64,000 nt of DNA from Methanobacteriota archaeon (lineage in GTDB: Archaea > Thermoplasmatota > Thermoplasmata > SG8-5 > JAGLSY01): positions 32,001 through 96,000 of the forward strand of contig JAEHCO010000001.1 in assembly GCA_020697715.1 (NCBI GenBank). The letters are read 5' to 3'. Both the position numbers and the translations under genes were made by a program. The notes beneath the pieces were generated by a model. The model had not been told where the DNA came from. It was given only the letters and a program-made list of their open reading frames with translations, and did no database searches. Shown here piece by piece: positions 9,175 through 37,617 of this stretch; position 1 is the first letter of the stretch; every line of letters begins with the position of its first letter.

Positions 9175-10267
9175 TGACGACAGACACCAGAAAGCAGTGG
9201 AAGAGCTTTACAAGATAGCGGACAGCGTGTACAAGCAGATCGATAAAGGCCAGATACCGAAGATGGAGATCCCGCTGAGGTCGAAGAAAAATATTCAATT
9301 CGCTCCCAGAAAAGGCGTATGGAAATACGGGAACATGAAAGGCGTACGCAGTGCGAAGAAGCTCAATGGGGCCTACATGCTCCTGCGAACGATGTACATG
9401 CTGGAGTTCATCCAGGACATGATCAAGGACAGCAAATCATCCACCCTGAGAGAAATGTACTACATATCCGAGGGCTGGGACAAGGGCAAGTTCGGGTCCC
9501 AGGACGAGTCAAATAATCTGGCCGAGGACCTTGAGATAATTACAGCGTGTATGAGGGAGGACTTCAAGCTCCGCCCTGAAGAGGATGGAGCCAGAGTTAT
9601 CGGCAATCTCACTTTGGAAGAGGTCAACAGAAAGGGAATTAAAAAGAGAATAAACTGCCAGGACGATGTCGGCGACAGTGGATACAGCATACCGTACAAT
9701 GTGGAATCCGACAAGGTGAACTTCATCGAGACCGATGCGAAGTTCGTCATGGCTGTCGAAACTGGTGGTATGTTCGACAGGTTGGTGGAGAATGGATTTG
9801 ACGAGGATTCAAATGCAATTGTACTGCATCTCAAGGGACAGCCAGCGAGATCAACCAGGCGGATGATGAAGCGACTGAACGAGGAGATGAATCTACCAAT
9901 TCTCGTATTCACGGATTGCGATCCATGGTCCTTCAGAATTTATTCATCGATAGCATACGGGGCCATAAAGACAGCTCACATTTCAGAATACCTGGCCTGT
10001 CCAAGTGCGGTGTACATCGGCATAACCACCGACGACATACTGACCTACGACCTGCCGACCGACAAATTAAACGCACAAGATGTCAAGGCACTCAAGTCCG
10101 AGCTAACAGACCCGAGGTTCAAGGATAGGTTCTGGCGCGATGAGATCGAGCTGATGTTAAAAATAAACAAAAAAGCAGAACAGCAAGCACTGGCCAAGTA
10201 TGGTCTGAACTTCGTGACGGATAAGTATCTGCCGGAGAAGTTGACGGAACTGGGTATGCTGGATTAA
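9164..10267 (+). CDS. top6A: DNA topoisomerase VI subunit A
   Basis: TLREMYY catalytic Tyr motif, TOPRIM VET and DCDP, KAEQQAL; overlaps top6B. Confidence 0.97.
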
Positions 10268-10381
10268 TTCATTATAAATGCACAAGAGCTCCGAGCAGGC
10301 CAATGGGGGTAGGGATTGGCCAGTGGAGGAGCTGGGTGGGGGGCCGACCCATAGGATGGGGTGGGCAATATTGCAATGTAT

Positions 10382-10637
10382 CAGCAAGGCATCTTATATT
10401 CGAACATGCCCCGGGGCGAGTGTATTTTGTGTTAAATGCACAAAATAATAGTTCGAGAAGCAAAGCGATTCGAACTATGACGCAGACCCGGGGTACTATA
10501 TTCTATATCTCAGTGAGTGACAGTTGCGATGTGCCAGCAAAAAAATATCCTCCTCGCTCTCTCAATGCGAGGAGTCAAATAGAGCCCCGCCAGGAGTTCA
10601 ACGATGGGCGGGGGCCTTATCCACACCCAGCTTAGCA
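10382..10637 (+). ncRNA. structured dispersed non-coding element, family B copy 1 (ncRNA or non-autonomous mobile element)
   Basis: Homologous to 36307..36570; several stems with a compensatory change; G-T pairs favour the + strand. Confidence 0.6.
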
Positions 10638-10714
10638 AACTTATATCTCTGCAAGGGTGGGCATATTCAATGAATATTCATGGTGGGGGCGGTAAGCGGG
10701 CTAAATACCCGAAC

Positions 10715-11773
10715 CTAGAAAGCGTTGATAATCGTGTCCAGATCTTCCTTCGTCAATCCCGGATGCACCGGCAGGCTCAGCACCTCTTCCGCGGCCTTAT
10801 CCGAGTTATCCAAGCCTTTGCTTCCATAATCAGATAGCAGGTCGAACTTGTGCAGGGATTTGGGGTAATACACACCTGATCCGACACCATTGTCCCTGAG
10901 CTTCTGGATGACATTGTCCCTATCCTGCACTCTTATCGTGTACTGGTGGAAAACATGGCGGTAGCCATCTGGTACGTATGGAGTGACGATGCCTTTTGCT
11001 TTCAATCCTTCTGTTAAGTAAGCGGCATTTGCGATCCTGGCCTTGGTCATTTCTTCAAGTTTGGCAAGCTGGACAACGCCGATGGAGGCCGCGATGTCGG
11101 TCATTCTGAAATTGTATCCCAGGAATTCGTACACATAGCGGTCGGCCATGCCGTGGTTCCTGAACTTCTTGGCCAGGTCGTTTATCTCATCATCATTTGT
11201 CGTGATGATGCCGCCCTCGCCGGTTGTCATGTTCTTTGTTGGATAGAAGCTGAAACTGGCTGCATCTCCCATGGAGCCAGTGGTCTTCCCGTTCATGGCA
11301 GCTCCGTGAGCCTGGCATGAGTCTTCGAGAATCTTTAGACCATGCTGAACACCGAGCTTGTTTATCTTCTCCATGTCAGCTGACAGTCCGAAAATATGGA
11401 CTGGCATGATGGCCTTTGTTCTTGGAGTTATCTTCTCAGCTATTGAATCAGGAGAGATATTGAAGGTCTTTGGATCTATATCCGCGAAGACCGGGGTCGC
11501 TCCCGTGAATAAGATGGATGTCGCACTGGCCACGAAGCTGAAAGGAGTTGTTATGACCTCATCGCCCTTGCCGATGCCCATTGATAATAGGGCGAGGTGA
11601 AGGGCCTGGGTTCCGTTTCCCACCGCGATGCCGTGTTTCGCTCCGCAGTACTCGGCGAATTTTTCTTCCAATTCGGCGACTTTCTTTCCCTGAGCCAGCA
11701 TACCGGATTGCATAACGGCTTTCACTGCCTCGAACTCGTCATCCCCTATCTGGGGGCTTGCTACGTTTATCAT
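10715..11773 (-). CDS. DegT/DnrJ/EryC1/StrS sugar aminotransferase (WbpE-like)
   Basis: FSFYPTKNMTTGEGG PLP-lysine motif; GYNFRMTD. Confidence 0.92.
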   Translation of the reverse strand: MINVASPQIGDDEFEAVKAVMQSGMLAQGKKVAELEEKFAEYCGAKHGIAVGNGTQALHLALLSMGIGKGDEVITTPFSFVASATSILFTGATPVFADIDPKTFNISPDSIAEKITPRTKAIMPVHIFGLSADMEKINKLGVQHGLKILEDSCQAHGAAMNGKTTGSMGDAASFSFYPTKNMTTGEGGIITTNDDEINDLAKKFRNHGMADRYVYEFLGYNFRMTDIAASIGVVQLAKLEEMTKARIANAAYLTEGLKAKGIVTPYVPDGYRHVFHQYTIRVQDRDNVIQKLRDNGVGSGVYYPKSLHKFDLLSDYGSKGLDNSDKAAEEVLSLPVHPGLTKEDLDTIINAF

Positions 11774-36306: not shown

Positions 36307-36570
36307 CAGCAAGACATTTGTATTCGAGCATGCCCCGTCTGGATAATTCATTGATAATTTAATAGGGCGGGGTACTATATTCGATGTGCTAGCGAGTGAC
36401 AGTTGCGATGTGCCAGTAGAAAGATAAACTCCTCGCTTTCGAACGCGAGGAGTCAAACCAAACCCTGCCCCGATCTATTTTGCGTTAAATGCGCAAAATA
36501 ATAGTTCGAGAAGCAAAGCAATTCGAACTATGAAGCAGGGGCGGGGTCCTTATCCACACCCAACATAGCA
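36307..36570 (+). ncRNA. structured dispersed non-coding element, family B copy 2
   Basis: Homologous to 10382..10637, with the 63-bp cassette in a different position. Confidence 0.6.
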
Positions 36571-37369: not shown

Positions 37370-37469
37370 TAGGACCATTGTTGAAATTAAAGACTTCACA
37401 ACCTATTATTGAATCATTTAAGGCCCATGGGTTACTAGCAGTAAATATGTGGAAATATTCAAAGAGTAA

Positions 37470-37585
37470 GCGGTTGCCGTAAACCTATCAAAGTATCAGT
37501 AAATGAACGCAGAGTTTTTGACTCTGCGAATTGAGGTTTATGGCCTATTCTGGGAACTTTCAGGATCTTTAGAGCCTGATAGTTC
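37470..37585 (+). repeat. structured dispersed repeat, family A copy 3
   Basis: GCCGTAAACCT/AGGTTTATGGC stem, CGCAGAGT/ACTCTGCG hairpin, GAAC.TTCAGG...TGATAGTTC tail. Confidence 0.75.
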
Positions 37586-37617
37586 ACATGCAATGTTTTT
37601 AATTTACCATTCCTTAT

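Follow-up and report, generated by a model that had tools for sequence, protein, structure and literature searches.

Nested hairpin repeats in a Thermoplasmata archaeon: probable gene-less mobile elements hosting a 57-nt double hairpin in their loops

Introduction

Mobile elements of the IS200/IS605 kind insert next to a specific short target word. In a Genome Research paper of 2008, Elhai et al. reportedly described, in cyanobacteria, palindromic units of 21–27 nt that occupy loops of other repeats and leave the host structure intact; these repeats are bacterial and are not known to have a transposase link, and their likeness to the system described here lies in the small unit within a host loop. 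Our system comes from a Thermoplasmata archaeon whose draft genome (G000; 2.12 Mb in 34 contigs, 93.8% complete) we approached through a 64,000-nt stretch, the window, which is part of a 956-kb contig (JAEHCO010000001.1 of assembly GCA_020697715.1, positions 32,001 to 96,000). Two stretches of the window, 10382-10637 (copy 1) and 36307-36570 (copy 2), are versions of one structured repeat, the backbone, and each holds a 57-nt double hairpin, the cassette, in a different loop. We consider it probable that both stretches are copies of lineage-specific, hairpin-bounded mobile elements without genes, of the IS200/IS605 kind and similar to PATE or REP repeats, and that the cassette is a smaller non-autonomous element that landed in single-stranded loops.

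The closest described repeats are the PATEs and SMR-A repeats of Haloquadratum walsbyi (Dyall-Smith et al. 2011, PMC3119063). In the parts of that paper drawn on here, PATEs are gene-less archaeal repeats without inverted ends or target duplication that insert beside a target word of 4–6 nt and carry like palindromes near both ends, resembling those of IS200/IS605-type elements; ends-only versions of 52 bp are left by deletion of the core, and SMR-A elements insert within the near-terminal palindromes. The repeats described here are alike in being gene-less and without inverted ends, in having an ends-only form (in G003, a second genome from the same genus, a 53-nt remnant stands where our genome has copy 2), in holding a second small repeat class in near-terminal palindromes, in a palindrome that resembles the hairpin beside a resident IS200-type Y1 gene, and in species-specific presence and absence. 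They differ in phylum, the host here belonging to the Thermoplasmata, and in the nested unit: as far as the same parts of the paper go, SMR-A is ~110 bp long with prominent inverted ends, whereas the insert here is 57 nt long, consists of two adjacent hairpins without clear inverted ends and sits in an apical loop. Moreover, H. walsbyi is described there as having many IS1341-type genes, whereas here the Y1 transposase gene is usually single-copy and TnpB was not found. A hierarchy of inserts in the loops and the exchange of 3′ modules at a fixed word further set our repeats apart.

REPs, REPINs and BIMEs are likewise GC-rich extragenic palindromes present in tens of copies, mostly after gene ends (Nunvar 2010, PMC2817692; Bertels & Rainey 2011, PMC3116915; Di Nocera 2013, PMC3733652). 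According to the portions of these papers used here, the REP/RAYT partnership resembles ours in a usually single-copy Y1 HUH gene with the same palindrome beside it, in mosaic repeats and in a copy number that differs widely among relatives. It differs in that our protein is of the IS200 type, our hairpins are direct and not inverted doublets, and the GTAG tag at the hairpin foot is absent. With the peel-and-paste elements IS608 and ISDra2 of the IS200/IS605 group, as partly covered in PMC6006769 and PMC3119063, our repeats share same-orientation subterminal hairpins on one strand, the lack of inverted ends, and strand-specific imperfect palindromes, here with G-T pairs for which the opposite strand would have C-A; the lack of target duplication and insertion next to a short specific word may be shared as well. 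They differ in that no complete insertion sequence with both ends was identified here and in that the element ends are roughly placed. The sections used of the survey by Quentin et al. (2018, PMC6006769) report that the Y1 proteins of archaea are of the IS200-type subclass 1.1 only. A literature search of limited coverage returned no description of such repeats in Thermoplasmata.

Results

The two copies share a collinear backbone of three hairpins, as an earlier note on this DNA had claimed and as the sequence of both copies reads: a left end, a first GCCCCG stem, a junction ending in GAGTGACAG, the word TTGCGATGTGCCAG, a CTCCTCGC/GCGAGGAG hairpin, a second GCCCCG stem and the tail CCTTATCCACACCCA (Table 1). 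The first and last stems have the arms GCCCCGYC / GGGCGGGG in direct orientation, and inspection shows no inverted-repeat relation between the left end and the tail. Several further statements of the note were borne out: the 63-bp blocks at 10423-10485 and 36476-36538 are identical at 59 of 63 positions (93.65%, E 6e-22, blastn); they lie in the loop of the first stem in copy 1 and of the last stem in copy 2, within host stems with the same arms; a change between them (TATTTTGTG/CACAAAATA vs TATTTTGCG/CGCAAAATA) is compensatory and keeps the pair; and copy 1 occupies the spacer between convergent genes, top6A and an aminotransferase gene (topoisomerase VI subunits B and A are encoded beside it), while copy 2 lies between divergent open reading frames (ORFs). 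The single-strand folds of both copies beat those of shuffled sequences (z -3.97 and -5.28; 0/200 shuffles as good), the cassette hairpins within the host loop being predicted to form a three-way junction, and the opposite strand folds about equally well. The feature is real, non-chance and well structured. ORFs overlapping the copies match no Pfam family, and a protein-coding reading was rejected on that ground; a riboswitch, against which the note had also argued, or a leader is rejected because the copies lie after genes, in all kinds of spacer and in 33 places.

Table 1 Coordinates of the parts of the two window copies
Feature	Position	Strand	Basis or remark
Copy 1 left end (CAGCAAGGCAT...TATTCGAA), before first stem	10382..10404	+	Common to copy 2 and other copies
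Copy 1 first GCCCCG stem, 5′ arm and host-loop part CGAGTG	10405..10422	+	Empty form ..CGAGTG^ACGCAG.. at C11:483k, C15, C30
Copy 1 57-nt cassette: 9-bp hairpin, loop TTAAATG; then 9-bp hairpin, 13-nt loop GAAGCAAAGCGAT	10423..10479	+	8 nhmmer copies in genome, covariation, orthologous filled/empty pairs
Copy 1 host-loop part ACGCAG and first-stem 3′ arm (..CCCGGGGTAC)	10480..10496	+	Sequence and fold
Copy 1 conserved 33-nt junction GGGGTAYT..N..GAGTGACA, end of 5′ module	10490..10522	+	33 genome copies
Copy 1 long-type 3′ module, including TTGCGATGTGCCAG	10523..10640	+	11 full-length genome copies; 30 in loci examined; hairpin C compensatory changes
Copy 1 hairpin C	10550-10574	+	
Copy 1 second GCCCCG stem, empty loop	10584-10614	+	
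Copy 1 tail CCTTATCCACACCCAGCTTAGCAAAC	10615-10640	+	
Copy 2 left end	36307..36328	+	
Copy 2 first GCCCCG stem, common 41-42-nt form; arms CATGCCCCGTC / GGGCGGGGT around 26 nt	36329..36376	+	
Copy 2 33-nt junction ending GAGTGACA	36369..36401	+	
Copy 2 TTGCGATGTGCCAG, hairpin C (36429-36452), second GCCCCG stem 5′ arm (CCCTGCCCCGATC)	36402..36475	+	
Copy 2 57-nt cassette in last-stem loop	36476..36532	+	Empty form CCCGATC^AAAGCAGGGG in other copies
Copy 2 host-loop part AAGCAG, 3′ arm GGGGCGGGGT, tail CCTTATCCACACCCAACATAGCA	36533..36570	+	Tail model, 12 hits

In nhmmer searches, backbone and cassette proved to be two separate multi-copy families. The genome holds eight cassettes, none of them standing alone: seven lie in loops of GCCCCG stems (three in first stems, four in last stems) and one in an unrelated ~98-nt repeat (C29:70530-70584), at the foot of a stem without GCCCCG arms; one copy is at a contig end (C15). 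The earlier note had recognized the insert correctly and overestimated its length. The last 6 nt of the 63-bp block (ACGCAG/AAGCAG) also occur in empty loops elsewhere (..GAGTGACGCAG..) and belong to the 3′ part of the host loop, and filled first-stem hairpins measure 86 nt against 29 nt when empty, that is 29+57; the inserted unit is therefore 57 nt long. In a gap-free alignment of 16 cassettes from five genomes, 99.6% of 270 cells pair and 10 of the 18 pairs have changed on both sides (28 cells), while none of 500 shuffles reaches any of five measures and partners slid by 1–3 columns give at most three such pairs. The loops (TYAAATG-like and GAWGCRNAGCGAW-like) are conserved while the stems change between genera. 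The structure of the cassette is under selection. Its ends agree as inverted repeats at about 4–5 of 8 positions only (by inspection of the alignment), and it is found in at least five different loop contexts, preceded by GAGTG (4), GAGTC (4), GAGCC/AAGCC/TAGCC/GAGCT (5), GATC (1) or TAGCG (1).

The size of the backbone family was established by iterated nhmmer searches of the genome, seeded from the window coordinates. A 33-nt junction unit (GGGGTAYT, spacer, GAGTGACA) follows the first stem in 33 copies, 11 of which lead into a long 3′ module, "Type I", made up of TTGCGATGTGCCAG, the CTCCTCGC hairpin, the second GCCCCG stem and the tail CCTTATCCACACCC...AACAAAC (12 tails by nhmmer); the remaining 22 lead into a shorter 3′ module, "Type II", or its variants. 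A blastn search with both window copies gave 38 merged loci in the same genome, and an nhmmer search of it with the left end alone gave the self-match only. All backbone copies and cassettes lie in non-coding DNA, and at about 130–265 nt the element is itself non-coding and too short for a transposase. RNAalifold applied to 15 compact Type I copies predicted the three hairpins, and 8 of the 33 predicted pairs carry compensatory changes, mostly in the middle hairpin and the inner first stem. An outer G-U pair (pair 4-45) is kept in 15/15 of these copies and the matching C-A mismatches are rare, so that the palindromes are better on the sense strand of the element, which fits RNA or a single DNA strand.

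Loops vary in size from copy to copy. The first-stem hairpin measures 40–42 nt in 21 of the 33 copies, 29 nt in five, and 86 nt in four (three with the cassette); single copies have 75, 81 and 118 nt. The same 5′ module recurs in a second family of the order, with the junction conserved and a minimal 21-nt hairpin (loop TGTAA or TGTGA), suggesting that the 41–42-nt hairpins are loop-extended forms. An insert of ~100 nt was seen in the first-stem loop, and three of the 17 long-type copies of G003 (L020, L073, L082) have an extra hairpin of ~35 nt in the loop of their middle CTCCTCGC hairpin; all three backbone stems can thus host inserts. A different double hairpin, of ~50 nt (CTCGGC..GCCGAG, CTCAGC..GCTGAG), was seen in the 3′ arm of the first stem, where it splits GGGCG from GGGT (G000 C28:25978 and C11:664364; G003 L074).

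Relatives were compared through loci of G001, G002, G003 and other genomes, that is, parts of genomes and not whole ones. By BLAST, backbone and cassette are present in all three other genomes of the genus and in the family's one other genus; in another family, 4 of 13 genomes gave weak matches. A degenerate cassette pattern run against one genome per species of a public collection gave 29 hits; 12 form both helices, all in four archaeal metagenome-assembled genome records, and the other 17 are bacterial and, because they do not fold, were taken as chance. The loci examined include 30 Type I copies (11 in our genome, 17 in G003, 2 in G002), seven with the cassette, three in the first and four in the last stem. 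In G003 it occupies the first stem of L065 and the last stems of L027 and L075, and other assemblies also have it in the first stem (L062) and in the last (L004).

Orthologous sites, compared among G000, G001, G002 and G003, include both filled and empty cassette loops. At one of them (G000 C28:168.5k filled, G003 C44:179k empty) the two genomes differ by exactly 57 nt, with gene end, left end and stem near-identical; at the other the cassette is in G003 (C48:3.0k, L065) and the empty loop in G000 (C30:3.08k). In both pairs the likeness stops right after GAGTGAC; from there on, one genome has a Type I and the other a Type II 3′ module. Together with the loose preference in the words preceding the cassette, this exchange after GAGTGAC suggests insertion next to a GAGTG-like word. 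One filled/empty pair is clean for the whole backbone: G003 (L012) has a ~453-nt insert 5 nt past a stop codon, containing a Type I copy, a 98-nt repeat and a duplicated left arm, where our genome (C11:554.5k) has 42 nt, and target duplication is limited to an ambiguous AT. A common target word of the backbone was not derivable from the pairs compared. At the site of copy 2, G003 has 53 nt between well-aligned flanks vs 308 nt here; the left end and a tail-like piece are kept and the hairpins are gone. For copy 1 no empty site can be defined, because G003, G002 and G004 show rearrangements downstream of top6A. Six orthologous sites are occupied in both genomes by different variants.

A newer 3′ module precedes a surviving old tail at one orthologous site, as though modules were added before older ends, and the tail (..CACCCAGCTTAACAAAC) is often trailed by one or two more tail-like units (G000 C22:213.8k, C34:26.25k and C30:3.2k; G003 L065). 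In L033 (G002:C43) and L034 (G004:C56), the last ~35 codons of top6A are doubled with a ~98-nt repeat in between, to which G004 adds hairpins and a small ORF.

A gene for an HUH transposase stands near the same hairpin. Our genome has one Y1_Tnp gene (C1:16359-16709; 101.7 bits against Pfam Y1_Tnp), whose product scores 115 bits against the NCBIfam model of IS200/IS605 TnpA (NF033573, cut-off 55) and 22.9 bits against REP_Tyr_transpos (cut-off 80) and is therefore not a RAYT; its HUH and Y motifs are intact (DHVHLF, YISGQ). The zinc ribbon of TnpB or Cas12f-like proteins (PF07282) was not found in this 93.8% complete genome. The hairpin pattern GCCYCGTC, 3–33 nt, GGRCGGGGT is present in 22 of 22 genomes of the order, ours included, each with 1–38 matches. 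Among 19 other genomes of the class one has it, and a reversed control pattern gave 0 everywhere. Sixteen of the 22 genomes of the order carry Y1 genes, as do six of the 19 others; none of the latter six has the hairpin.

In 10 of 11 genomes examined for adjacency (five further Y1-positive genomes of the order stand outside this count), the hairpin, in a 21–22-nt form, lies 78–1408 nt (≤1.41 kb) from an IS200-type Y1 gene; in G007 it was not seen in the 1.8 kb covered. In G005 and G009 the 22-nt hairpin that follows the Y1 gene at 380 nt and 95 nt is the sole listed match to the pattern, and in G006 and G008 the hairpin near Y1, at 78 nt and 424 nt, is one of two listed matches. The 3′ flank of the Y1 gene, with hairpin, AT-rich spacer and CGTGACTTGG (GTGAC), has the layout of the 5′ module of the repeats, that is, hairpin, TAYTATATTC-type spacer and GAGTGACAG. 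Most genomes of the order have one Y1 match, with the hairpin to one side of it only; four genomes have the gene in inverted orientation to the hairpin, and a tRNA gene with a partial duplicate lies between gene and hairpin in five.

The Y1 loci L056, L057, L058 and L052 (of G005, G008, G003 and G001) have, between gene and hairpin, a tRNA gene and, before it, a partial copy of its 5′ half, which looks like an integration scar. In our own genome (L001, G000:C1:14859-18209, locus positions ~2330-2460), ~0.5 kb from the Y1 gene and beyond a tRNA gene, two short GCCTCG...CGGGGT hairpins are inverted inside a ~25-nt inverted repeat, in a REPIN-like arrangement.

Other repeats adjoin copy 1. Directly upstream, 10286-10378 is another repeat unit, in which a stem (GCTCCGAGCAGGCC...GGCCAGTGGAGGAGC) precedes a G-tract block (GGGTGGGGGG...GGGGTGGG). 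A backbone copy at C11:161k is followed by this unit in reverse complement, and in another genus the cassette lies inside its CCGAGCAGG...CCAGCG stem family (L015, L024, L034). Downstream, 10655-10705 holds a short repeat made of AAGGGTGGG, an AT-rich palindrome and GGTGGGGGCGG, which also flanks backbone copies at C11:230.7k and at G003 L020 and L079. Elsewhere in the window, 37444-37588 has many partial matches in G003 and G002 and is probably another repeat or a repeated gene end. ARAGORN found zero tRNA genes within window positions 1-64000.

Discussion

Altogether, our results are most likely explained by nested non-autonomous mobile DNA and not by a new RNA gene. The earlier note had offered both: a nested REPIN- or MITE-like system with a small palindromic unit in GCCCCG hairpins, and an undescribed non-coding RNA with a movable subdomain. 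From the former the nesting stands, given two separate multi-copy families, filled and empty orthologues and a hairpin beside an HUH transposase gene, for which the note had proposed to look, while a strict REPIN/RAYT system does not, given an IS200 TnpA and direct instead of inverted hairpins; the latter has less support than mobility in view of 33 diverged copies, swapped modules and presence/absence.

How such elements might move can be outlined as follows. The order-wide imperfect palindrome GCCYCGTC...GGRCGGGGT would be the hairpin that the resident IS200-type Y1 transposase recognizes on single-stranded DNA, as its adjacency to the gene and sequence likeness suggest. Elements with one or two direct hairpins and no inverted ends would be moved or copied in trans, presumably by this enzyme, and settle just after gene ends, where we see them present in one genome and absent from another. 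The hairpin base appears to be kept while the apical loop tolerates palindromic inserts (extensions of ~20 nt, the 57-nt cassette and others), in agreement with the filled and empty orthologous loops. Insertions may favor sites after GAGTG-like words, the cassette lying in GAGTG^AC and 3′ modules being exchanged after GAGTGAC, a pattern that would be read as a target preference. Deletion between like hairpins could leave ends-only remnants, as in the one case seen, and the hairpins may have an additional role at the 3′ ends of transcripts from neighboring genes.

We speculate, tentatively, that the order maintains its own version of the REP-RAYT partnership known from bacteria, with an ordinary IS200-type TnpA in the part of the RAYT. 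The mostly single-copy gene of this TnpA might be inherited together with a strictly conserved hairpin that is amplified to tens of copies in some lineages. The loop of the hairpin might then serve as a landing pad for smaller palindromic hitch-hikers, and the 57-nt unit might be a parasite of a parasite that recognizes GAGTG-like words in single-stranded loops, forms a three-way junction and is moved by the same enzyme.

Several observations weigh against the reading of these repeats as mobile elements of the IS200/IS605 kind. The copies have diverged, the two window backbones being 84% identical over their best shared block (blastn), and there is no sign of present-day movement. A single whole-backbone empty site is clean, the comparisons at L020 and L027 not being so, and the backbone ends are for that reason roughly placed and the target word is not fixed; the flanks of the cassette have a loose preceding word and no consistent duplication. 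At four of the six orthologous sites occupied in both genomes the whole element differs, which simple transposition does not predict and which may mean conversion or site-specific re-targeting. No autonomous element with the hairpin at both ends was found, and none of the loci read has a hairpin upstream of the Y1 gene; six genomes of the order (59–83% complete) have hairpins and gave no Y1 match. The link with TnpA is drawn from adjacency and likeness and not from activity. Finally, the orientation of the copies relative to genes fits an RNA function too, as do the conserved loops.

Orientation bears on the first of three other explanations, namely that the repeats are a functional structured RNA in the 3′ ends of transcripts (a stabilizer, a processing or termination signal, or a protein platform), with the three stems as its core and the loops as optional subdomains, whose copies spread by duplication and were kept as useful. 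As scored from crude ORF calls, the upstream gene is on the same strand in 25 of 31 copies (two-sided binomial p 0.0009; of the 33 copies, one on a short contig and one without a called upstream ORF were unscored). The junction lies 74–240 nt from the end of the upstream gene and the element starts ~30–100 nt past the stop codon; 16 spacers are tandem (13 co-oriented and 3 anti-oriented copies, p 0.02, two-sided binomial), 12 convergent and 3 divergent. An RNA would also account for stems that covary while the cassette loops are conserved across two genera, for the frequent G-U pairs on the sense strand with few C-A mismatches, and for the conservation of the basal stem and junction word among families of the order. 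However, elements that move as a single DNA strand are also expected to show strand asymmetry and orientation bias, and orthologous presence/absence and module swaps within one genus are unusual for a functional RNA tied to a gene. Moreover, the same cassette occurs in three unrelated hosts, including the ~98-nt repeat, and the hairpin is tied to a transposase gene. Searches of Rfam with the whole window at gathering thresholds gave 0 matches, and positions 10250-10720 searched at E up to 10 gave a chance-level miRNA hit alone (16.2 bits vs a gathering score of 44). We therefore regard an RNA as unlikely to be the whole explanation; an RNA role is compatible with mobility, bacterial REPs being both mobile and transcribed.

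Rather improbable, in our judgment, is a cassette that does not move by itself, in which case the mosaic would have arisen by recombination, template switching or gene conversion on the near-identical GCCCCG arms, with whole hairpins copied between positions. Loop types are indeed shared by first- and last-stem positions (e.g. ..CCCGAGAGACGCAGGG.. and ..CCCGATCAAAGCAGGG..), the two window host stems have the same arms, and both the swapping of 3′ modules at a fixed word and the replacement of the whole element at four of six occupied orthologous sites would be in line with such exchange. Against it stand the number of loop contexts in which the cassette is found and its presence in the ~98-nt repeat, at a stem foot without GCCCCG arms. 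In addition, arms and loop flanks are the same in both genomes at the C28:168.5k pair, where only 57 nt differ, and arms of 8–10 nt are short for homologous recombination.

That one or both copies are assembly artefacts, formed by chimeric joins of repeat reads in a 34-contig draft that is rich in short repeats and has one cassette at a contig end, is hardly credible, since both window copies lie deep in the 956-kb contig with unique flanks and the same arrangements recur in the second genome of the genus and in other assemblies (L065 and L062 in the first stem; L027, L075 and L004 in the last).

As nested mobile DNA, these repeats would be a worked case from outside the haloarchaea in which hairpin-bounded repeats are tied to a single-strand (HUH) transposase and one repeat uses the hairpin loop of another as its landing site. 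Because the system is small and sharply defined, with an order-wide hairpin base, filled and empty 57-nt sites and module exchange at a fixed word, oligonucleotides could be used to test directly both how IS200-type enzymes choose their targets and how mosaic repeats such as BIMEs originate. For the annotation of these uncultured archaea, the system would explain many of the hairpin-dense spacers that follow their genes and counsels caution before such spacers are called riboswitches or small-RNA genes.

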